Shown here: positions 2-17,564 of the stretch, piece after piece
Numbering within the stretch: position 1 is the stretch's first letter
How the letters are laid out: each line of letters begins with the position of its first letter
Made by a program: the position numbers and the translations under genes
IMG/VR virus record: IMGVR_UViG_3300003702_000449
DNA: 20,000 nucleotides
Origin: an uncultured virus (IMG/VR IMGVR_UViG_3300003702_000449)
Lineage: Duplodnaviria; Heunggongvirae; Uroviricota; Caudoviricetes
Strand: one strand, 5' to 3'
The notes under the pieces: model-generated
Told to the model about the DNA's origin: nothing
What the model saw: the letters and a program-made list of their open reading frames with translations, nothing else
Databases searched by the model: none

Positions 2-3000
2 GTCACTATCTGCATATAAGGCCGTAAAGGTTGTAGAAGTTGTGCAAGCCGTACCTGGGAATGTTATAGAATTCCCAACTTCAATATCCACAGTCTCAAT
101 AGCTGAAGGGGCACTGTTACCAATATCATCCTCATGTCTAAGCATAAACTGAGTTATACCTGCAGCATTAATAGAAGCTAATCCTGCAGCATTCAGAGGA
201 ATATCGTTATAGGCACCAACAACTAGAGTAGAAGCAGTTAATGCTGAAAGCTGTACTTGCACTGTATAATTTAAGTAATCATAGTCTCCAACAACTAAAG
301 GTTCAGATCCAGCTGCTCCAGCTTCCACTAGGAGTTGCCAGTCAGTACCCACATTTACACTGTCTATATAAATAGATAAGGTAGCAGCAGTAACAGTAGC
401 ATCACTAGGTAAATAACTAGTATCAAAGTTAGCCATATATCTATAGATACGATAGTCATTATCACTAGTCCCGGTAAAGTTATATGCAGCTATATAAGGA
501 CTAGCTGTCAGACCCACAAATAGAGTATCATCATTAGGATGGAACCCTATAGATGTGGTAGCTGAGCCTAATGCAGGACTAGGATCATCAAGTTTGGTAC
601 CAAAGACTCCAGTTAGTGTATTAAAGTTATAAACTGTCAAGTAAGGACCAACAGCATGGGATGCTGCTAAGTTAGTAGGACCAGAAGTATTTTCAGTTAG
701 CCAAGCTACTCCAGTACCAGCCCCAGGTAATGCAGTAGTAGAAATCTTTGTACCAATAGCCCCTGCACTAAAGGGATATACTTCTAAGTAAGGGCTAGTA
801 TCTGTTACTATAGCTATATGAGACCCATCTGGACTAAACTCAATGCCTGTAATTACTCCAGAAGGTATGTTACCTCCAGCAGGAGCTGAAGACTTAGAAC
901 TCCAAGAAGGGGTGCCTGCTCCTCCATTAGTTATAGCCCAGACATGCAAGTATGGACTAGTAGAACATCCAACTGCAACAAAAGTAGCATTAGTATTAAT
1001 ATCTACAGCATTACATTCAGCTCCTGGAGGACTCGTAGGTGCTGTTAAGGTACTAGTCCAGAAACCAGCTATAGCACCAGAGTTATCTATATCGTACATA
1101 TAGACACCAGCACTATCAGTAGTTGCTGCTACTACTATATTATCTCCAGTACCTATATCAAAGCCATTAACTCCTATTGATCCAACAGAGGTAGGATTGG
1201 GAGGAGTACCACTTATAACTCCTGTTGCGGGATCGAAGACATAAGCCCACAGATAATTAGCGTTAGCAGCAGTACCTACAACAAGCCTAGTTTTATCAGA
1301 TGTGAACATTGCATCTGTTCCAGCAGCAGCAGGAATAGTTGTAGGAGGATTAGAAGAAGAATCCCATTCTTTGTCTACTTCATCAAAAGCTTGAACTGTA
1401 AAGTAGGGTAGATCAGTATGTGCAAATACTGCATAGTCAGATCCTGACTGACTAAACGAACCTCCATTTACAGTACTAGACCAAGGTTCAAATATAATCA
1501 GTGCATCAGTTAAGGTTGCATTGAGTCCTCCAGCTTCGGTTGCCTTAACACTCCAATCTCCCGTCTGGATTCCATCGACAAGACAACTTACAACTACTGA
1601 AGTACCTCCTCCAGAAATAGGAGTACATGTTATAGGAGAAGTAGGAGCTCCTGATTTGAAGATTATTACATCCTCGGGAGGTGCAAACGTAGGACCAGGT
1701 AATCCAAGTCCAGTTAAGGTTAACTCTAAGCTACCAGAATTACCTGCCATTGTAGGAGATATACTAGTAAACCCAAAAGGTATCTGGTCAATGCTAAAAT
1801 TGTAATTCTCAGGAAGTACTATATCGTCTGGTACAATACCTGTTACAAAAGGTTTAATTGCACTACCAGGTATAGTTATACTAATGGTTTCTGTAGGTGT
1901 ACTAGGATTATACAGAACATGGGGAAGAAGTGTAATAGTAACTCTACTATCACTAGTCCTTACTACTTCGGAGACGTTCATATCATCTCTAACTGAGGTA
2001 TTCCAGTTAGTAGAACCAGCTCCTAAACTTCCTGTTAACCCATTAATTATATTCTGTCTCTGAGCATCAAAGGTTGCTCCTGCATCTACCCAATGAGTAC
2101 CCCAAAGGTCTAATACTATAGTTTCCCCACCAGATTGTATAATCTGAGCGTCTCCTATACTAGCACTATTGTCACCATGAATTACTATTAACTGAGGATC
2201 CCTGGTAGTTCCACCATACTCTGCCATATTAGCAGTCATATAGTCCGAACCACCTGTAGTATTATATTTAGTACCTAAATAATAAGAAGACTGTCTTATA
2301 GTTGGAGGGTCGTCTCCACCAATATAATCTAAATCGAAACTAGAACGTAGATTAAAGTAAGTTATACCCCCAGGATTAAAACTATGTAATCCTCTCTCAT
2401 TAAAGGCCATCATAGGAAAATGTTCGTTCCAAACATGTGGAGCACCTTGGTTATATATAGAAGGTTGCATTGAAATAGGAAATCTATTACCTAATTCCGT
2501 ATTGTACCATCTACCATCTTTAAAGTCTGATAGTGTTAGAATGTCTACATTACCTGAAAGGTCAGGTATGTTAGAATCAGTTAATACTACGGTACTTCCT
2601 AAACCAGATACGTTAGCAGAATCCGATGTGAATATTTTTAAGTAGGCTGAATGGTAACCTTTATTTGCACAGGGCTCACTATAATTTACTGTTAGTCTGG
2701 CACCTCTACCACCATCTTCGAAAGCCTGAATATCTACATAGGCATTTAACCCTGTTGCGCCTTGTCTCCACATAGGAGCACCATTACGAAAGTGGTCGAT
2801 AACTATCATAAAGCTAGAGGCACCAGTAGGGTCAATCGAATCTATGCCTCTATCATTTAATCTAAATTGATTTTCCTTTGGTCCAAATACCTGTGATGTT
2901 GATATATCGTTAATAATCAAATCATTAGCAAATGGAGGGTCTCCTGAGGGAGTAGCAGTTCTAAAGTTTGAAACTACACTATTATTTGCTACATCGCCAG

Positions 3001-8070: not shown

Positions 8071-9159
8071 TTAAGCCATCCTAGACATTATAAAGGTTAC
8101 CCCAAATAGAACCAAAATAAAGAAGAATACAGCAAAGACTAGTCCGATAGGAATAAGTCCTAACATACTTCCAGCTAAAATTAGAGGTATGCCAGTAACC
8201 ATAGCAGGAGTAACTGCCTGAGTTACATTAAAGATCATTCCAAGTATAGATATACCTATAAGAACGAAACCTATACCTCCAATAATCATACCTGTAGCCT
8301 TTGGATTTCCCTCTGAGTCCTCCTGTTCACCAAATAAAGCTAAGCCTAATGCATCTAAATTAGTAGACATACTCTCAGGTAAATTTCCCTCTAAGAAATC
8401 TTGTCCTTTAGGAGCTCCTGTATACGCTGTAGGTTCCTCAGCTATAGAAGCAGTAAATGCAAAAATATCTGGAACTAGAGTTCTAACCCCAGGAATAACC
8501 TTCATTGCAATAGTAGCACCAGCAACACTAAGTCTATCACCTAAGTTAGTTATTGTAGTATACTCCTGACCTGAAGCTATAGAAGCATTCTCAGTAATTT
8601 CAAGTATCTTACTCCCAAGAGAGTCTAGAGTAGTTCCTCCTAAAGTACCATCTATCCATATACTAGTATCATCTACTGATACTTTAGACTCATATGAGTT
8701 AGTAGAATCAACTGTAGAAAATAGAATAGGATTAGCACAGATACAAACCTTTAACTTATCCATATTCCAAGTTAAACCCTGATTTACCACACCCGCAGCA
8801 GTAAAGTACATAGCCTGATAAGCATGACCATAATAGAATATCTGTCTTATACCTCTAATAGTATCAGAAATTACAATTGGAGGTCCAGACTCAGTAACTT
8901 CTAGGATTAATTGTACTGCGAAGGCTCGCCTTGGATCTTCACTAGGAACCACAGCATAATTAACATTATATTCCACTAAGATAAGTAAATCATCAGCCTC
9001 TAAATAATTTCTAAAGACTGCAACCTGGTGTAACTTAATAGAATCAGGGTTAGTAATAGCAAAGACTGGATTAGCAGCAAAGCTAGCCAGAACTATTGCT
9101 ATAAGTATAAATATTAAGTGAAATCTACGTACTACCATACCTGAACCTAGTAAGTCCAT
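8071..9159 (-). CDS. Membrane protein with signal peptide and C-terminal transmembrane helices (putative virion envelope protein)
   Basis: Signal peptide (RRFHLIFILIAIVLASFAANPVFA), ~250-aa soluble region, 2-3 C-terminal hydrophobic segments. Alternative start ATG at 9138. Confidence 0.85.
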   Translation of the reverse strand: MDLLGSGMVVRRFHLIFILIAIVLASFAANPVFAITNPDSIKLHQVAVFRNYLEADDLLILVEYNVNYAVVPSEDPRRAFAVQLILEVTESGPPIVISDTIRGIRQIFYYGHAYQAMYFTAAGVVNQGLTWNMDKLKVCICANPILFSTVDSTNSYESKVSVDDTSIWIDGTLGGTTLDSLGSKILEITENASIASGQEYTTITNLGDRLSVAGATIAMKVIPGVRTLVPDIFAFTASIAEEPTAYTGAPKGQDFLEGNLPESMSTNLDALGLALFGEQEDSEGNPKATGMIIGGIGFVLIGISILGMIFNVTQAVTPAMVTGIPLILAGSMLGLIPIGLVFAVFFFILVLFGVTFIMSRMA

Positions 9160-9349
9160 CCTCCATTTGAGCCTTTACCATCCTAACTGCCCTAGCTCGA
9201 TTACTTGTAGGAAGATCAAACAACTCAGAATCCTTTATATTGCTCTGAGAAGAGATTTCTAATTTCTTCTGAGTTGCAAGATCTTCACTTTGATAAGGTC
9301 CATAAAATATAGGAGACCTTTCATCCATTGCCAGTATATACCAAGGCAT
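9125..9349 (-). CDS. Hypothetical protein (74 aa)
   Basis: Start abuts the stop of the upstream ORF (TAG ATG); natural composition; no recognised family. Confidence 0.75.
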   Translation of the reverse strand: MPWYILAMDERSPIFYGPYQSEDLATQKKLEISSQSNIKDSELFDLPTSNRARAVRMVKAQMEDGLTRFRYGST

Positions 9350-9592
9350 CTAAATACCCTTTATGCCTCTGAGTCCAGGACGCTTCCAGCCTTTCTTGGC
9401 TTTCTTTCCCATTACACCACTAGCTTGTTTCTTTACACCCTTAGCTACTTTAGTAGCTTCCTGGGCTAAACCAGATTTAATCTCACTGGCTTTAAATCCA
9501 CCATTAGTAACCTTAGCAGCTGCCTTAGCTTCATCTGCCATAGTTCTGGGTACTGCCTTAGTTTCCGGTAACGTGTATATTCTCTTAGCCAT
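9350..9592 (-). CDS. Small Lys/Ala-rich basic protein (80 aa), putative DNA-condensing protein
   Basis: AAGGAGG RBS upstream; highly basic (KKQASGVMGKKAKKGWKRPGLRGIKGI). Confidence 0.8.
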   Translation of the reverse strand: MAKRIYTLPETKAVPRTMADEAKAAAKVTNGGFKASEIKSGLAQEATKVAKGVKKQASGVMGKKAKKGWKRPGLRGIKGI

Positions 9593-9605
9593 TGTCTTAC
9601 CCTCC

Positions 9606-9746
9606 TTAAATCTTAAATCCAGACTTCTTTGAACCCTTTTTCCGCCCTTTACTTATACCCTTAGCAATCTTCGAACCCTTTACGTGACCCATTAGCTTCT
9701 TAATTTCACTTGCTATTTTAGTGCCACTAACTTGTCCCTTGTACAT
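9606..9746 (-). CDS. Small Lys-rich basic protein (46 aa)
   Basis: Manual translation MYKGQVSGTKIASEIKKLMGHVKGSKIAKGISKGRKKGSKKSGFKI; AGGAAGGA upstream; fills the gap; its stop overlaps the next RBS (TAAGGAGG). Confidence 0.75.
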   Translation of the reverse strand: MYKGQVSGTKIASEIKKLMGHVKGSKIAKGISKGRKKGSKKSGFKI

Positions 9747-9758
9747 CTATTATCCTTC

Positions 9759-12700
9759 CTAACTTATAGCTAATCTAGACATCTCAGTTTTACTTTTTCT
9801 ATCCAAAGCCGTAGGATACATCTTATGGTAATAAGTCTTTCCTGCAACTCCACTAGTAACAAACACTGCTGTTAATTCCTTATCATCGTCCATAAGAACC
9901 ATAAAAGATTTATTGGTTGTATCCTTACCTTCTACATCACCCTCCCAGTGATCAAACTTCCAGCCTTTATTTGCAACAGCATTAACCTTAATCATTTTAC
10001 CAGTTGCAATCCTTCTAGTTTTAGGAACTCCTCTGCCTGCCCCAGTAGGAGTAGACTTAATAAGTAAGTTAGATATACTTGGATCGTCTGTATCTTCTTC
10101 TTCCCTTTCAGGTGTCCACCAAGCGGGCCTACGCCTACGTATAATCCTTTTAGGCTTAGGTTTTTGAGGTCTGCCTACAGATGTATCAGTTTCAGTAGTA
10201 GTACTTGTAGTAACCTCGGGTTCAGTCATAGTACTAGTTGTTATTTCTGGGACCGTTTGAGTAGTAGTACTAGTTGTTAAACTAGGAGTAGTAGTAGTAA
10301 ACTGAGTAGGACCTACTATTGGAGCAGTAAACTGGCTAGGAGTTCCAATAGGTTGCATAGACGGAGAACCTGTTGTAGGAGCAATACCTGGACCAATACC
10401 TGGACTAATACTTGGACCTATGCCAGGACCTATCTTTGGACCTGTTCCTGGACCTGTTCCAGGGGTTGTAGTAGGACCTACACCAGGAGAGACTCCCGGA
10501 CTTACTCCAGGTGAAGGACCCACACCAGGAGATATATCAGGAGATATACCAGGACCCTGCCATTGACCTGGACCCCTTACCGGACCAATAATAGGAAGGC
10601 CACCAGGAGTCTTAAGAGGATCTCCAACTTGTCTTCTCCCAGGAGTAGTGGGACTTATAGGCTCTATAATAGGCGTACTAGGAGCTATCCCAGGACGTCT
10701 AACAGGAGTAGTGGGAGTTTCAGGAGGAAGTCTCTCAGGCTGGATTTCTGGAGTTACTTTAGGTTTCTTACTAGGAGCTGAAATTGTCTCAGGATCTGGA
10801 GGAAATAGACGAGTACCAGGAGAAACCGCATCTATTGCCTCAGCATCAGGATCTGGTTCCAGTACCCAACCTACCCCAGGTACAAACCTACTAGGAGCAT
10901 CACTAGAAGTTAACATTACAGGAGTACTTAGACCCAAACCAGCAGTTATACCTGAAAGAGGTCCCATTACACCTTGAAATCTACTTATTTCAGCGTCTGG
11001 TATTCCAGATACAGTACCACGTCTCTTTAAGATTTTAGACCATTCTGCATCAGATCTACCACTAGCTGTTAATCCAGGAATATTAGCTTTCTGTCTGAAT
11101 GTTACAGGAACTATAGTGCCTTCATAACCCCCAGCCCAATCTGTACCTGTTGGAGTTATTTTATAAGGTTCTCCTACCTGGGCATAATCTCCTGGAGCAC
11201 CTTTACCAGCTTGTAGTCTAGAGCCAAGTTCCATGACTGCATCATCTGGTATATCATCTGCTAGTATAGGAGCTGCTCTACCTTCAGCAATTTGTAACCT
11301 ATCAAGAACAGCCCTATCTGCTGCACTAAGACCAGAATAAGCATCATCTGCTACTAGATCTATTCTACCAACCTCAAGAGTATATGCGTCTGCAGCATCA
11401 TCACCCCGACTCATGCTAATTCTTGAAGCTTCCTCATACTGCTCTTTAGTAAGCTTAGGAGTTTGAGGTTCACTAGCACTTTTCCCTGTTGGCCTGACAC
11501 GAGTATCTGCTACCTTAGCTGACCCTCCAGGACCCTTCCAGCCTCCTCCTGTTGGAGTTAGACTTGGACTTGGACCTCCAGATATAGGAGGACCACCAGG
11601 CTCCAAACCTGGAATCTCCCAGTCATCCCCTTTAACTACCTTAAACTCTGTTACTAATTCCTCAGCTTCTCCCTTAGTAAGGGCTGGTAAGACATCTACA
11701 CCTTCAGTAACCTCTGGCTTGCCAAAGTAAGCCATAGTAGTTCTTAGTATACCTTCCTCGTCTTCTGGAGTAGCCTCTACGAATTCCCTCCTCCTACTTA
11801 CATAGACTGTAGTATGCATAGTATCAGCATCTACTTCTCTGACTACTCTAAGATAAGGCTCATCAACATCACCCGCTTCTCTAGGAACTTTGTATCCAAC
11901 TATTTTACCTTCACCTGGATCAACAGCAGTTAAGGACTTCTGCCTAATAGGGATCCAACCCTGATCTTCAATATACTTTGCAGAAGGAACGTAATTAGGA
12001 AGTACATCCACCCACTCGATCTCCCCTTTTACCCCTCTAAAACTATATGCTATATTTTCTATAGCATCTGCAAAATCTGCACCACCCTGTACAGCAGCTG
12101 CTTGTAACATCTTAGCATCATTAAGATGTAAGACTCTTTTACCAACTAGTACATCTCCAGTCTCTTTAATAGTCTGAAGAGGATGCCTAATAACTCTTGT
12201 AACATCCTTCACTCCCTGCTTAGCTAAGGTAGGTAAAGGAGTCTTCCAAGTCTCACTAGCTATTGCAACTGAGCCTTTTACTACAGATTTTCCAGCAGCT
12301 ACATATCCTGGAAGTACTGCAGCCCCTCCAGGTCCAACAGGAACTGCCTTCATGAGGGTCTTATCTACCATTCCCCCCAAAGTCCCAATAACAGTTCCAG
12401 TCTCCTCAGCTGTCTTTACAACCTGTCTTCCACCAGCAGCTGCTATATCACTTATAGGTTCAGTAGCTCCCTTATATAGAAGTCGTCCACCAGCAGTAAA
12501 AGGACTAAGGATTCTAGATACTTCAGGGGCTCTAGCAGCTACTTGGCCAGGATAGGCTAAAGGCTCTAAAACTGCAACAGCTTTACCAACTGTTTCTCCT
12601 ACTGATATTTTACTACTTAATTGCCCAGGATAGGCTAGAGGTTCTACTGCCTTAACTGCAGAAATAACTCTACTTGATACTGCGGACGAAAGCTGATAAT

Positions 12701-15700
12701 CCGCAGTTGCAAGGGCTCTAGGAGCAGCTTTAATAGCACTTATTATCCTAGGAGCCCCTAACATTATATCAACTGCGCCTGCTTCTGCGACTCCAACAGT
12801 TGCTTTAGTACCTGCAATAATAGGCTTAGCAGCCATTCTAACAGGAGCAGTAATCAACTTAAGACCTAAAGTCGGAGCAACTATTCCCATACTAGCAGTT
12901 AATTTTGCTAATTCTCCAGCATTATGTACTGCTATAACTACTCTTTCTTGTAATTCCTTCTTAGTTAAGTGGGAGGGAGCAGTTCTTAAAGCATTAGCAG
13001 CAGTTCTTACAAAACCTGCCTTTAAAGGAGCAGTTGCAACACTTCCAGCACCTAATGTTGCTATAGTAACTACATCTAAGACTCCTGAAACCCCTATCAT
13101 GGCTAACTCAGCCTTAGTAAAACCTCCAGGAGCAGACCTTATAATAATTCTTAGAGTACCAACTACAGGTATGGCATCCATACCCATAGACTTAGCATGG
13201 TCTAAAAAGGACTTAGTCTTAGTATAGTTAGGACTATCAACTATTTTTTGTATGTCTGTATCATCAAGACCAGCACGTCTTAACTGCTCTTCAGTAGCTT
13301 CAAGTTGTCCACCTGCCATTAAAGCTGTTAAAACATCAGAACTAAAGCTAATATCCTTATATTTGGGAAGCTGATCCTCTCCACTTATAACCTCTCCCTG
13401 TTCCTGCATTACTCTATATGCAAATGAACCTGGTTCAGGTTTCCATGCCTCTTCTAAAGGTCTATCAGCTGACTGCCCAGTACTTACCTTCTCAAAATAC
13501 TCTTTCCATTCTGGTGAGCGTATTTGCCCACCCTCTGCAACAGTATTACCCTCACTGTTTTTAACCCACCTAATAGGTGTCTTAGCCAGATTATTAAACA
13601 GAAATTGGTCAAAAGATATACCCTTATCAGGTAATCTAGCTGCCTCCTCTTCCGGAGTACCAGCCATATGCCAATCTGCCATAGGTCCAAGAATTGCACT
13701 TGACATACTTCCAGTGTCTATTTCAATATCTTGAACTATATTAACGCCTGCTGTAGGTACTCCACCAGCAGCATCTAAGCCATCAGACCCTTTAATAGGA
13801 GTTCCATCAGGACTAAGTCCAGCTAAACTAAGTAGGTAACCTTTCTTATCATCATAGTCTACAAAGGCCCTATCATACTCTTCTAGTTTCTCTGGAGTTA
13901 GATCAGTATACTTAAAGAGAATCCTATCAGAAACTCCAGCCTCTCTAGCCCCATCTATGTCTATACCACCTTCTTCAGTCATAAATGGAGTTAACTCATA
14001 TAGGTCATTTACCTCTTCAGCGTCAAATTCAGCAAGAACAGCAGTAGTTTTAGGTGAATCAAACTTTAACCCGGGAGTTACTCGGTCTAGAGAACTACTC
14101 TTTAAAAAGGGTATAATACCCCCAGCTTCCTCAATCTGTATCCTAGATTGTTCTGCAGTTACAACTTTATCCCCTAAATCTGTCCTTAATTCAGCATCAG
14201 TGAATTTTCCACTACGGATAATTGCTGAAGTATCTATACCTCCAGGAGTAATTTCTTCAAAACCGTCCCAGTCATATGCAGGTTGATTATAAAAATCCTT
14301 ATATTTATCTACCTCTCTAACATAATCTTCAGGAAAGCCTGCTTCTAGAAAAGTATCTACAGTAACTGAAGGATCTTCTAATGCAAGAGCAACTTGGAAT
14401 CCATTTAGTGACGTAACAGTTCCAACAACTGACTTTATCTGATCCTGGGCTGCTTCTCGTATAGCCTTTTGTTCTTCAAAAGCTGCTACCTCTCTTTCAT
14501 AGATTATGATGTTAGCACCATCAGAAGCAGCCTGATTTATAGTATCTTCATCTAATCCAAGTATCCTTAGATCTGCAATAAGTCTACCATGCTCTGCAAA
14601 ACTGATTTTCTGAGCATCAGCACTCATTGTAGCTATATCTAAAGTAGCAGTATCCCGCATGCCAGAACCATCCATACGGTGTATACCTTGATACTTTGTG
14701 TATTTAGCTAAAGTAGTATCATATTCTTCCTGTCGTCTTAGATTCTCTTCTAGTATTAACTTATTTTGGGCCTCTATTAATAAATTTGCTTCGTCTTGCC
14801 TAGCTTGTGCCTCCTCATCAATTATCTCTTGCTGTTTTACTGCTTCAAGTACTTTCCGGTCTCTCTCAGCTACAGCAGCAGCTGCACTCCTTCTAAAATC
14901 ATATACTGCTGTAACTCCTTTAGCTATATCTCGACTACTGAGTCCAGCCTTCCTTAAGTCTTCAGCTTTTCCACCTGCCTTTATAATAGCATCAATCTGG
15001 TACATCCCATCTTTAACAAGATCTGGGAACTCTTCCTGAAGTTTATCTCCATACTTTATATTCTGTCTAAGTCTACTTACTTCTGACCGTCTCATGCCTA
15101 GAGCAAGAAGATCTGAAGTAGTTGCCCCACTTCTGATTGCTTTACTTACATCTAGACCACCATCTGTCATCCAGCCTTGATTTCTAAACTTATTAGCTGC
15201 CTGCCAATATGCAGATAACTGGTCCTCAGTCGCTGTTAGTGGATCCAGAACTGGAAGCTCCTCTTCTTTAAGAGGTTGATTTACAATATATGAAATGTCA
15301 AAATCAAGAGAGGCTATCTGCTTCTCTAAATCTGGAAGTAACTCTGTTAAACCTTTCCCTTGAGCATCTCTAGCCTGAGCTAATACTCCTTCTTTCTTCT
15401 CTTGAAGAGCATCTATCTGAGTTTTCTTCTCTTCCTCAGTCATAGCAATAGGAACTACAACAAGTACAGGAGCATCTGTAGTTTCAGCTAATTGAGCAGC
15501 ATAAGCTTCAGACTGTTCTAGAGTACCTTCATAGAAACCCTGTTTGTCTTCATCCCAGTATATATTATCTTGAATATAAGTAGGAACTAATTTAGCTTTT
15601 TCAGCTTCTTCTTCTATAACCTGTATTCTAGCTACTTCTGCATCTGCAACTTCCTGGACCTTTCTAACTTCTATTGCACGGGCCTTCGATATTATATTCT

Positions 15701-16216: not shown

Positions 16217-16375
16217 TTAGATATCCCTCATAGATATCTTTTTAGACTTTCCCTTAAGTACTGGTTTTCCTCTCATCTTAGCAAGTTTCTTTATTATATC
16301 AGAAGACTTACTCTTTTTTACCACATCCTGATAAGTGGAAGACACTTTTGGTACTAATCCAGCTTTCTTAGCCAT
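16217..16375 (-). CDS. Small Lys-rich basic protein (52 aa)
   Basis: Manual translation MAKKAGLVPKVSSTYQDVVKKSKSSDIIKKLAKMRGKPVLKGKSKKISMRDI. Confidence 0.75.
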   Translation of the reverse strand: MAKKAGLVPKVSSTYQDVVKKSKSSDIIKKLAKMRGKPVLKGKSKKISMRDI

Positions 16376-16397
16376 TTACCATACCCTGTATCCTTCA

Positions 16398-16577
16398 TTA
16401 CATGCTCTTGTCCCAGTACAGACTGGCATTTCCAACATTCCTCTTCTTGCTAATCCTACTAAGACCTTTTTTGATACCTTTACGTTTCCTAGAATTAGAT
16501 TTCTTAACAGCTTTCTTAAATCCTTTATTATCAGCCTTCTTAAGTTTATACTTACGGCCATCCCCTACAGTAGCCAT
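16398..16577 (-). CDS. Small Lys/Arg-rich basic protein (59 aa)
   Basis: Manual translation MATVGDGRKYKLKKADNKGFKKAVKKSNSRKRKGIKKGLSRISKKRNVGNASLYWDKSM; ATG 3 nt after the upstream stop; preferred over the overlapping 61-aa track ORF. Confidence 0.7.
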   Translation of the reverse strand: MATVGDGRKYKLKKADNKGFKKAVKKSNSRKRKGIKKGLSRISKKRNVGNASLYWDKSM

Positions 16578-16580
16578 TAC

Positions 16581-16838
16581 TTACTCATCACTTTGAAATA
16601 TAATATATCCAGATCTACTAGCAGCCTCAAAGGTACTCTTCCAATGATCCACATTAGGACGATTAGACTTTAAAAAGACTTTTAGAACTGCACTCATACT
16701 GATTCCATCATTATCAGACACCAGATCTAATACTGCATACTCAGATTCATTAGCTTCAATACCATAGGCTCCTACTCCACTTCTTAATTCATAGAGTCTC
16801 TGAGAACCATCTTCAGTAATAAAAACTCTTCTATCCAC
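16581..16838 (-). CDS. Small winged-helix-like protein (85 aa)
   Basis: EYAVLDLVSDNDGISMSAVLK...TFEAASRSGYI pattern; similar to neighbour 16831-17130. Confidence 0.7.
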   Translation of the reverse strand: MDRRVFITEDGSQRLYELRSGVGAYGIEANESEYAVLDLVSDNDGISMSAVLKVFLKSNRPNVDHWKSTFEAASRSGYIIFQSDE

Positions 16839-17130
16839 TGATTTCTATATAACCTTTTCTAATAAGACTAGTGACTAATTTACTTTTATCCATAGACGAT
16901 AAAGTATCCAAATCAGCAGAGTCTACCATATCATCAAAAAATTCACTAGTAGTTACTTGGTAAGGAGTCCCAGAACTCCAAACACTCGCTAAGGCTAAAG
17001 TATCTAGAAGTTCATACTCTCTATAAGCATCAATTCCTAAACGTCTTGTAGGATCCTCAGAATTTTCAATAACTAACTTAAGTCCACTTAAATAGTCTTT
17101 ACCAGAATGTGTAAGTTGAACATATTTCAT
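16831..17130 (-). CDS. Small winged-helix-like protein (99 aa)
   Basis: YVQLTHSGKDYL...EYELLDTL...LVTSLIRKGYIEI pattern. Confidence 0.7.
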   Translation of the reverse strand: MKYVQLTHSGKDYLSGLKLVIENSEDPTRRLGIDAYREYELLDTLALASVWSSGTPYQVTTSEFFDDMVDSADLDTLSSMDKSKLVTSLIRKGYIEISG

Positions 17131-17150
17131 TAGTTATTCCAAATATATAC

Positions 17151-17195
17151 AAAAAATTAGGGAACAGACAAGCTTTTAAACCTGCCTGTCCCCTA
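17151..17195 (-). terminator. Rho-independent terminator after the capsid-like gene
   Basis: Minus-strand RNA UAGGGGACAGGCAGG-UUUAAAAG-CUUGUCUGUUCCCUA-AUUUUUU: 15-bp stem whose three G-U wobbles only pair on the minus strand, followed by a U6 tract. Confidence 0.9.
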
Positions 17196-17221
17196 GATGT
17201 ACTTCCCTGAACCTTGAATGA

Positions 17222-17419
17222 CTAGTCTGTAGAACCAGAAATCCACGCAACAGCACCCATCAAGATAACAGCGACGAAGACGTAAGGCAGGACAGAAATA
17301 AGCGCCTCAAGTCCGTCAGGAGCCGTGGTAGGTACTGCAGTAATAGTCTCCAAAATCGTAGGAATCAGGGTGACACCAACGACAATGGAAATCATGATAC
17401 CAATCAGAATTGCAACCAT
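17222..17419 (-). CDS. Putative major capsid protein, spindle-shaped virus (SSV1 VP1-like) two-helix hydrophobic fold
   Basis: 65 aa; helix 1 ILIGIMISIVVGVTLIPTI, short polar loop, helix 2 ALISVLPYVFVAVILMGAV; the GhxLhPxI and LhxhhPhhh motifs match my recollection of fusellovirus VP1/VP3; own promoter, RBS and terminator; distinct codon usage. Confidence 0.7.
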   Translation of the reverse strand: MVAILIGIMISIVVGVTLIPTILETITAVPTTAPDGLEALISVLPYVFVAVILMGAVAWISGSTD

Positions 17420-17429
17420 TGTTCTTTTT

Positions 17430-17435
17430 CCTCCT
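17430..17435 (-). promoter_or_regulatory. Shine-Dalgarno AGGAGG of the capsid-like gene
   Basis: TAATAGGAGGAAAAAGAACAATG, 10-nt A-rich spacer. Confidence 0.9.
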
Positions 17436-17535
17436 ATTACTAACTAGAGGCCCCACCGGGCTCCTTGAGGTGCTGCCCACATCGTACGGTCCGAACCCAG
17501 AACTTTATTGATATGTCCCAGAACCTTCAATGTCT

Positions 17536-17564
17536 ATTATAAAGGAAAAATCCAGATCTGTCAA
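17536..17564 (-). promoter_or_regulatory. Perfect sigma70/sigmaA consensus promoter
   Basis: Minus strand TTGACA (17564-17559), 17-nt spacer GATCTGGATTTTTCCTT, TATAAT (17541-17536), intergenic and upstream of the capsid-like gene. Confidence 0.92.

Follow-up and report, generated by a model that had tools for sequence, protein, structure and literature searches.

A fusellovirus/His1-type capsid gene within a bacterial-type transcription unit in a widespread lineage of large linear viruses

Main

Fuselloviruses have circular genomes of about 15 kb that carry an integrase gene, and viruses of the His1 type (Halspiviridae) have genomes of about 15 kb that are linear, end in terminal inverted repeats and encode a protein-primed family B DNA polymerase (PolB). 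The genomes of WyrdV1, a virus of Lokiarchaeota, and of Muninn virus measure 12.7–15.6 kb; in WyrdV1, two His1-like capsid genes lie ahead of a small gene, an adhesin gene and an ATPase gene. The spindle-virus families listed in the available portion of a 2025 summary by the ICTV are all archaeal (PMC12451623), and a passage of a 2024 paper states that no bacterial spindle-shaped virus has been identified (PMC10866085). The literature searched yielded no description of a bacterial virus of the spindle type. Here we describe P0001, a gene for a 65-residue protein in a 20,000-nucleotide stretch of the uncultured virus record IMGVR_UViG_3300003702_000449 (the whole stretch is referred to below as the window), together with the lineage to which it belongs.

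We read P0001 as the major capsid protein of a non-tailed double-stranded DNA virus that infects a bacterium and belongs to a lineage with large linear genomes, and we put the probability of this reading at roughly 0.6. Relatives were drawn from three IMG/VR contigs, 80 stretches kept out of 167 from metagenomes, and one species genome. Genome-wide statements refer to two long relatives, G001 (87,793 bp, 96% complete by CheckV) and G002 (109,607 bp, 82% complete). The window has no megablast match in the GenBank phage/virus collection, and the lineage is undescribed whichever host it has.

Identity of the 65-residue protein

The P0001 product, which begins MVAILIGIMISIVVGVTLIPT, was modelled with AlphaFold2 as two helices, residues 2–28 and 35–62, joined by a short loop (mean predicted local distance difference test score 82.6). 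Used alone as a query, it has a single match among PDB sequences, chain 7xdi_A (VP1 of the fusellovirus SSV19; E = 0.11), and scores 15.8 bits (E = 0.014) against the Pfam family His1_capsid (PF25665). Metagenomic relatives number 127 in one collection and 216 representatives at 50% identity, and two profiles were made, A1 from 50 close relatives and A2 from 50 diverse ones. From the PDB, A1 retrieved 7xdi_A alone (E = 7.2e-4), and A2 retrieved the same chain with E = 2.4e-10 over profile positions 7–70, which span both helices and the loop; the runner-up for A2, a transporter helix, reached 6.9e-3. Among the individual members of the two profiles, His1_capsid was the commonest Pfam match (31/50 for A1, best E = 1.9e-4; 27/50 for A2, best E = 2.8e-5). 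Foldseek also placed 7xdi_A first for the P0001 model (probability 0.97, template modelling scores 0.72/0.68, root mean square deviation 2.9, E = 0.26), with all remaining matches at a probability of 0.23 or less; the modest E value reflects the simplicity of the helical-hairpin fold.

An earlier note on this DNA, made from its letters alone, had proposed a fusellovirus-type capsid protein, and profile and family comparisons bear this out, with SSV19 VP1 also first among the fold matches. On the strength of these sequence comparisons we regard the homology of P0001 to the fusellovirus/His1 capsid family as established, even though the protein lies outside Pfam's own threshold. Like SSV19 VP1, it consists of two hydrophobic helices and a short loop, and the G-x-x-L-x-P motif of helix 1 and the L-P of helix 2 align between the two proteins; unlike SSV19 VP1, P0001 has no N-terminal extension and is helical from residue 2.

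Two results count against this assignment. The 15.8 bits of P0001 fall under the curated PF25665 cut-off of 27, and direct profile comparison of the family with the capsid proteins of WyrdV1 and Muninn virus gave no significant similarity. A tblastn search with the capsid protein against the phage collection returned nothing even at E = 10, for which the low-complexity filter is possibly responsible. The Atlas clusters that match the capsid protein are all unnamed viral ones.

The protein could instead belong to a large plasmid-like linear element, as a generic small membrane protein (a pilin, holin or vesicle protein). In a short hydrophobic protein, composition can inflate profile matches; P0001 by itself stays below the Pfam cut-off, the Foldseek E value is modest, and no virion has been seen. 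Against this, the A2 profile sets SSV19 VP1 seven orders of magnitude apart from the other membrane proteins of the PDB. Pilin and inovirus coat (pVIII) families, the competing assignments that the earlier note had named, are absent from the Pfam matches listed for the 100 member scans, in which no holin family is common either; one A118-like holin family matched a single one of the 50 A2 members (E = 0.029). Moreover, the morphogenetic module of WyrdV1 and Muninn virus recurs here in the tandem paralogues, the adjacent adhesin-sized proteins and a pI-like ATPase, and no type IV secretion genes were found among the scanned reading frames of G001 and G002. We therefore rejected the VirB2/TrbC pilin, pVIII and holin assignments, and we consider a non-capsid role altogether very improbable.

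As with VP1 and VP3 of SSV, paralogous capsid genes can stand in tandem, as they do in ten loci (L002, L060, L065, L066, L068, L069, L072, L075, L077 and L084). In the second paralogue, the loop is usually longer and abounds in N-x-T sequons (such as NITYT), suggesting surface loops that are glycosylated. Among the products of the large genomes are also several glycosyltransferases and GT-C-like membrane proteins.

The capsid transcription unit

The perfect promoter, the AGGAGG site and the terminator of hairpin and T tract that the earlier note had described around this two-helix gene are all present, on the minus strand (Table 1). The TTGACA-N17-TATAAT promoter is the sole 12/12 match within the window, for which the chance expectation, calculated arithmetically for uniform base composition, is about 0.01 per 20 kb over both strands. 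Downstream of the gene, the stem region of the hairpin extends from 17195 to 17158 and is followed by ATTTTTTG. The window as a whole is not enriched in either type of signal, with 43 promoter-like sites compared with 54.8 ± 7.2 in shuffled sequences and 11 terminator-like sites compared with 11.3 ± 3.2; the signal is therefore specific to the P0001 unit. Judged from these elements, P0001 appears to form a transcription unit of its own that is made for high expression.

Contigs assembled from RNA libraries (four runs from four studies) cover positions 17216–17518 of the window at 90–98% identity. As these contigs lie on P0001 and its leader, related variants are present in seawater RNA libraries, with DNA carry-over being possible.

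Within the 5' leader of about 110 nt, which the earlier note leaves unmentioned, a CCUCU motif (window 17440–17475) has alternative pairing partners, namely the Shine–Dalgarno site and an upstream GAG-rich stretch, the latter of which varies among relatives (L005–L008 and L039). This pairing may act as a translational switch or tune translation; in six close relatives, consensus pairing between CCUCU and AGGAG is weak.

Promoters and terminators across relatives

Promoters were compared in 67 non-redundant regions of 200 nt, each taken from upstream of a capsid gene; two of the 67 proved to be slicing artefacts. Matches of at least 10/12 to TTGACA-N16–18-TATAAT were found in 27 regions on the sense strand, the antisense count being 9 and that of shuffled sequences 5.1 ± 2.0; one artefact scored 10, so the corrected sense count is 26/65. 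At 11/12 or better the numbers are 12/67 sense, 0 antisense and 0.36 in shuffles, and eight upstream regions contain a perfect 12/12 promoter. Around the 38 perfect TATAAT sites, TTGACA is best matched across a 17-nt spacer, where 42% have at least four of six matches; other spacers give 0–13%, except for 26% at 23 nt. The consensus of the relatives comprises an AT-rich block, ATTGAnA, 17 nt and TGnTATAAT (an extended -10 element), and the sequence flanking the promoters differs among the loci. GGAGG(T) precedes nearly all of the relatives' capsid genes.

Terminators show the same recurrence. Downstream of the last capsid gene, a G+C-rich hairpin with a T-rich tail occurs in 41 of 63 non-redundant loci, compared with 3.5 ± 1.7 in shuffles (maximum 9) and an antisense count of 3; from locus to locus, the stems are unrelated in sequence.

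These signals can also be read differently, with an archaeon as host (for example, from a sediment or marine lineage that uses Shine–Dalgarno sites), TATAAT as a TATA box and the conserved TTGAnA 17 nt upstream as the binding site of a viral or host regulator, similar to a -35 element by coincidence. Strings like TTTATAAT in the AT-rich block upstream of the -35 element fit such a reading. So, weakly, does the longest RNA contig, which ends at 17518, near the start expected from a TATA box (about 17514); since this end falls between that position and the predicted bacterial start (17529–17527), the RNA contigs do not fix the transcription start of P0001. The -35 element, the 17-nt peak, TGn and TATAAT nevertheless recur in divergent relatives despite their differing flanks, and hairpin terminators are found in most of the relatives. 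The three capsid genes of archaeal spindle viruses taken as controls, which include one from the Bathyarchaeia genome G130 (described below) as well as genes of WyrdV1 and Muninn virus, lack a promoter of this kind, scoring 9, 9 and 8 of 12. The controls amount to three genes because searches for more gave few or no further relatives: tblastn with the WyrdV1 ATPase found only four records, and the G130 capsid protein had no relatives on viral contigs.

Elsewhere in the relatives' genomes, bacterial-type signals are not enriched, which weighs against a bacterial host. In 101 intergenic regions of G001 and G002, near-consensus promoters (at least 10/12) outside the capsid unit number 4 on the sense and 3 on the antisense strand; sigma-70-like sites and terminators are not generally enriched in 20 kb of G001; and a k-mer scan of the intergenic regions of both genomes revealed strand bias only for the ribosome-binding site.

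Group I introns in capsid genes

Inserts in the relatives' capsid genes match the Rfam group I intron family RF00028 (gathering cut-off 50 bits). There are 11 matches, of 51.6–85.8 bits, in 10 of 84 loci, all of them in or at the capsid gene (Table 1); none occurs in the window or in further loci scanned beyond this set. The introns are about 200 nt long and have no endonuclease open reading frame. Splice sites were read by eye in L049, L050, L018, L059, L061 and L063, where joining the exons restores the conserved protein, with U as the final base of exon 1 and G as the final base of the intron. Read-through into these introns accounts for some of the seemingly long capsid 'fusions'. We predict from sequence that the inserts are self-splicing.

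Self-splicing group I introns are found in phage genes such as T4 td and in Staphylococcus phage Twort. The introns described here resemble those of phages in their match to RF00028 and in their location in a highly conserved, presumably highly expressed gene, and differ in having at least five insertion points within one 65-codon capsid gene. A capsid gene full of introns is a finding in its own right.

The introns also bear on the host. In the accessible portion of the survey by Nawrocki et al. (2018), 39 archaeal group I introns are reported, all in ribosomal RNA genes and of subtypes IA3/IB4, and RF00028 gave no significant match in 6.7 Gb of archaeal sequence (PMC6125680). RF00028 introns in a protein gene thus have no archaeal precedent in that part of the survey, which argues against an archaeal host.

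Genome organization and virus type

Long contigs of relatives measure 48–119 kb, and the capsid gene is often within a few kilobases of a contig end. A perfect inverted repeat of 96 bp lies at the termini of G001 (L085:1-96 and the L089 end), the right contig end extending 112 nt beyond the left; no terminal inverted repeat was found in the 82%-complete G002, and the window holds no genome end. Both genomes encode a protein-primed PolB (PF03175; E = 2.9e-34 in G001 and 1.1e-36 in G002) and a family A polymerase (PolA) fused to uracil-DNA glycosylase (UDG) and an exonuclease, which in G001 makes for an unusual pair of polymerases. QueC, FolE, QueD and QueE are present in G001 (L086:5057-13554) and G002 (L091:14882 to L092:17918), with G002 adding QueF and carrying an intein in QueE; this 7-deazaguanine (preQ0) gene set suggests that the DNA is modified. 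A Rad52-like protein, RusA, a BRCT domain protein and a flotillin are common to both genomes, whereas a B12-dependent ribonucleotide reductase is encoded in G001 and not in G002.

The structural block of G001, G002 and two further relatives (G003 and G004) is closed by a Zot/M13-pI-like ATPase of 220–236 residues. Among 50,697 virus records, WyrdV1 (1e-9) gives its best match and Muninn virus (9e-8) the second; an inovirus assembly protein comes next. The window stops short of the position at which this gene would be expected. It does contain the gene for a 362-residue protein that is the second most conserved of the module, with homologues in 23 loci including G002. As this protein is shared with the relatives' genomes, the window represents the structural arm of a tailless virus of spindle type.

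Genes for an HK97 capsid, a terminase or a portal were found neither among the 15 window proteins nor by Pfam in 144 of 147 open reading frames of G001 and 137 of 200 of G002, nor by PHROGs in 48 G001 proteins. A tailed phage (Caudoviricetes) was rejected on these grounds, and the earlier note's view of a non-tailed virus is upheld, all the more as the module matches that of WyrdV1 and Muninn virus. No rolling-circle replication gene was found in the scans of G001 and G002.

Several described groups share part of this design. Fuselloviridae have genomes three to seven times smaller, whereas here genomes are linear, with inverted repeats and a protein-primed polymerase where ends are seen, and the expression signals are of bacterial type. 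Linearity, inverted repeats and protein-primed PolB are features of Halspiviridae and Thaspiviridae and are found here as well, in genomes that lie outside the ~14–38 kb size range of those families; the present genomes also differ from that of His1 in their family A polymerase, 7-deazaguanine genes and ribonucleotide reductase. WyrdV1 and Muninn virus have the capsid gene or genes, a small gene, a large adhesin gene and the ATPase gene in the same order, and in Muninn virus the capsid gene occupies the genome end, beside the gene for a protein-primed PolB; the genomes of these two viruses are much smaller, and their capsid proteins are not detectably similar to the present family. Nearest in genome design among published viruses, compared by description only, are the spindle viruses of ANME-1 archaea (Itzamnaviridae, Tepeuviridae and Votanviridae), which, in the portion of the source available, are described as large genomes with structural and enzymatic arms, QueCDEF, thymidylate synthase and two capsid genes (PMC9894754). 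According to the same portion, they differ in being circular or having an RNA-primed PolB and in being linked to archaea by CRISPR (PMC9894754). Inoviridae were rejected, since of their single-helix pVIII coat, small single-stranded DNA genome, rolling-circle replication gene and pI ATPase the last alone is shared: the coat protein here is a two-helix hairpin rather than a single helix with a signal peptide, and the double-stranded DNA genome runs to tens of kilobases and encodes polymerases of its own.

G002 also encodes a TROVE (Ro60/Rsr-like) protein (L092:9406-10707); no Y-RNA-like family was found above the Rfam cut-off.

Host

We judge the host to be bacterial with somewhat better than even confidence. 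The promoter, the terminator and perhaps the introns must suit the present host, and all are of a bacterial kind; the archaeal traits set out below weigh less, because they consist of inherited proteins plus one binning label. The gene set of the relatives is phage-like (PolA–UDG fusion, RusA, Rad52-like protein, HNH endonuclease and three LuxR/GerE regulators). The BRCT domain is closest to that of bacterial LigA (4e-18), and the flotillin is closest to FloT (8e-68), its nearest Atlas clusters being all bacterial. MCM, PCNA, TFB, TBP and Hjc were not seen in 281 scanned proteins of G001 and G002, which speaks against an archaeal host.

Several findings point the other way. The characterized relatives of the capsid protein and the ATPase are all from archaeal viruses. 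Of 185,579 species genomes, one alone matched the family, through a 15.4-kb contig of a metagenome-assembled genome (MAG) labelled Bathyarchaeia. G001 thymidylate synthase is closer to the methanogen type (4e-27) than to the bacterial type (2e-9), and one relative (L038) encodes a membrane protein with DUF2206, a presumably archaeal family. N-x-T sequons, which would fit archaeal N-glycosylation, occur in many of the paralogue loops. No peptidoglycan hydrolase was found in the scanned proteins of G001, G002 and further relatives. An archaeal host would also agree with the large ANME-1 spindle viruses, which, in the portion of the source available, share the two-arm layout, QueCDEF and two capsid genes (PMC9894754).

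The MAG contig itself carries viral genes only, and the family is present in 1 of 401 genomes of the class Bathyarchaeia. No spacer-grade match to the MAG-borne relative was found in these 401 genomes, in which matches of 23–26 nt stayed at chance level; this, too, speaks against an archaeal host. With the evidence on promoters, terminators and introns given above, we regard an archaeal host as possible but rather unlikely.

The earlier note had assigned the virus to a bacterium. The argument for this is now stronger than a single promoter could make it, because promoter, terminator and introns recur across relatives; no link to a particular host was found, and the archaeal features just described point the other way. 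Habitat and one flotillin lead make bacteria with archaea-like envelopes, such as Chloroflexota, possible hosts.

A second Bathyarchaeia genome, G130, has a different, 75-residue SSV-like capsid gene (L101 (G130:C26), 1483–1710, minus strand), flanked by the genes for a P-loop ATPase and for a protein longer than 487 residues. A plain TATA box, TTTTATATATA, precedes its ATG by about 40 nt; a Shine–Dalgarno site is lacking, and the stop is oligo-T with no hairpin. This locus is probably a genuine archaeal spindle-virus element. A search for the His1_capsid family in G004 and G130 returned nothing.

In G001, two tRNA-like genes (12676–12872, minus strand, and 23883–24000; ARAGORN intron mode) contain inserts of 103 and 40 nt that are neither group I introns nor clear bulge–helix–bulge introns, and one of the genes barely reaches the Rfam tRNA cut-off (30.3 bits). 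A strict bulge–helix–bulge search found none, and shuffled sequences often give one; as a marker of an archaeal host, the inserts are ambiguous. In the tRNA-Met gene of G001 (23807–23881), position 1:72 is a U:U pair; CCA is encoded in this gene as well as in the tRNA-Leu-like one.

Proposed virion and assembly

By analogy with spindle viruses of solved structure and with filamentous phages, we propose the following model. A short, stable capsid mRNA would be strongly transcribed, either constitutively or late. The hairpin coat protein would insert into the host cytoplasmic membrane and polymerize around the DNA as a helical lattice in the form of a spindle or rod, aided by the M13-pI/Zot-like ATPase encoded further along the module, and the giant secreted proteins may form a terminal adhesion structure. 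Release would proceed without a lysis module of the tailed-phage type; no lysin was seen in the scanned genes, most of which are unannotated. A small hydrophobic coat protein predicted to insert into the membrane, and an assembly ATPase of the same family, are features shared with Inoviridae, and the combination of a small membrane coat and a pI-family ATPase suggests assembly at the membrane without lysis.

Whatever the host, the same capsid protein may build a rod, a filament or a pleomorphic particle rather than a spindle. Wang and colleagues, in Cell in 2022, reportedly found that this capsid protein family builds rods as well as spindles, and the assembly ATPase is of the pI type of filamentous phages. 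In contrast, genomes as large as 48–119 kb would favour large spindle capsids, according to an argument made in a passage of the 2024 paper (PMC10866085), and a particle other than a spindle seems to us doubtful.

Distribution and significance

Contigs with the exact P0001 sequence number 91, the longest of 71 kb, and come from the ocean, vents and other samples; window DNA was matched in vent and marine plankton runs. Habitats of the group as a whole comprise marine water, vents, sediments and saline lakes. Probably a global group of linear viruses of about 50–120 kb with a fusellovirus/His1-type capsid protein infects Bacteria, with the capsid gene as a hotspot for self-splicing group I introns.

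If this is true, a spindle-virus architecture held to be confined to archaea has passed from one domain to another; what separates archaeal from bacterial viromes would be explained by the type of envelope and not by ancestry; and bacterial ecology would gain a non-lytic, membrane-assembled type of double-stranded DNA virus. Even with an archaeal host, the lineage remains a very widespread one, with genomes far larger than those of the classified small spindle viruses.

Neighbouring genes

All 15 plausible genes of the window share the minus strand (Table 1). The earlier note's description of the surroundings of the capsid gene holds, with two giant proteins, small basic proteins and signal-peptide or lipobox proteins present, and none of the neighbours of P0001 has an informative family in Pfam, PHROGs or NCBIfam. 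The 342-residue secreted protein has a lipobox-like LVAC motif and linkers rich in Pro and Thr, and is without a family match. The giant 2,114-residue protein has a C-terminal InlB B-repeat domain (PF18998, E = 1.2e-8) and is a candidate tail protein or adhesin, occupying the same position as the post-capsid adhesin of WyrdV1. The 362-residue protein has no family match and no tblastn match in the GenBank phage/virus collection, the 74-residue protein is conserved in seven loci, and the protein that runs off the window shows only patchy similarity to large proteins of five loci. From their composition, the Lys-rich proteins of 59 and 52 residues are candidate DNA-binding virion proteins.

Table 1. 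Positions of the features discussed, in the window unless a locus of a relative is named
Feature	Position	Strand	Remarks
Capsid transcription unit
-35 hexamer TTGACA	17559..17564	-	part of the 12/12 promoter match
-10 hexamer TATAAT	17536..17541	-	17-nt spacer from -35
Predicted 5' leader, ~110 nt	17420..17529	-	start at ~17529 inferred from the -10 position
Shine–Dalgarno site AGGAGG	17430..17435	-	10 nt before the P0001 ATG
P0001, putative major capsid protein gene	17222..17419	-	65 residues, two hydrophobic helices
Intrinsic-terminator-like hairpin and ATTTTTTG	17150..17195	-	17 pairs, 7 of them G-C
Other features of the window
Cys-rich zinc-ribbon-like protein, 109 residues	19582..19911	-	weak Zn_ribbon match only
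Membrane-anchored protein, 351 residues	18545..19600	-	homologues in 9 loci
Secreted protein, 342 residues	17587..18615	-	N-terminal signal sequence; homologues in 4 close relatives
Four small genes (99, 85, 59 and 52 residues)	16217..17130	-	last two Lys-rich, basic
Second terminator-like hairpin	16165-16140	-	after the block of four small genes
Giant protein, 2,114 residues	9759..16103	-	coiled-coil, hydrophobic and Pro-rich segments
Three small genes (46, 80 and 74 residues)	9125..9746	-	first two basic
Protein of 362 residues	8071..9159	-	signal sequence; C-terminal block of membrane helices
Signal-anchored protein, 430 residues	6777..8069	-	homologues in 5 loci
Giant secreted protein, >2,263 residues	2..6790	-	runs off the window; candidate fibre or adhesin
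Predicted introns in capsid genes of relatives
Intron	L049:469-675		insertion at codon 5
Intron	L050:1628-1851		insertion at codon 57; same in L051 and L052
Introns	L059:142-339 and 449-681		codons 9/10 and just before the final Q-G-stop
Intron	L061:90-291		insertion at codons 8/9; same in L062
Intron	L018:389-562		just before the final Q-G-stop
Intron	L063:424-647		just before the final Q-G-stop
Intron	L003:912-1109 (= L095:8499-8696)		5' end of the capsid gene

Proteins of 46–80 residues rich in Lys, Arg and Gly recur beside capsid genes. In the window they are encoded at 9350–9746 and 16217–16577, and the same tiny basic proteins are found upstream of the capsid genes in L020, L024, L026–L029, L056, L072, L080 and L081. 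They are candidate DNA-condensing virion proteins, presumably comparable to VP2 of SSV1.

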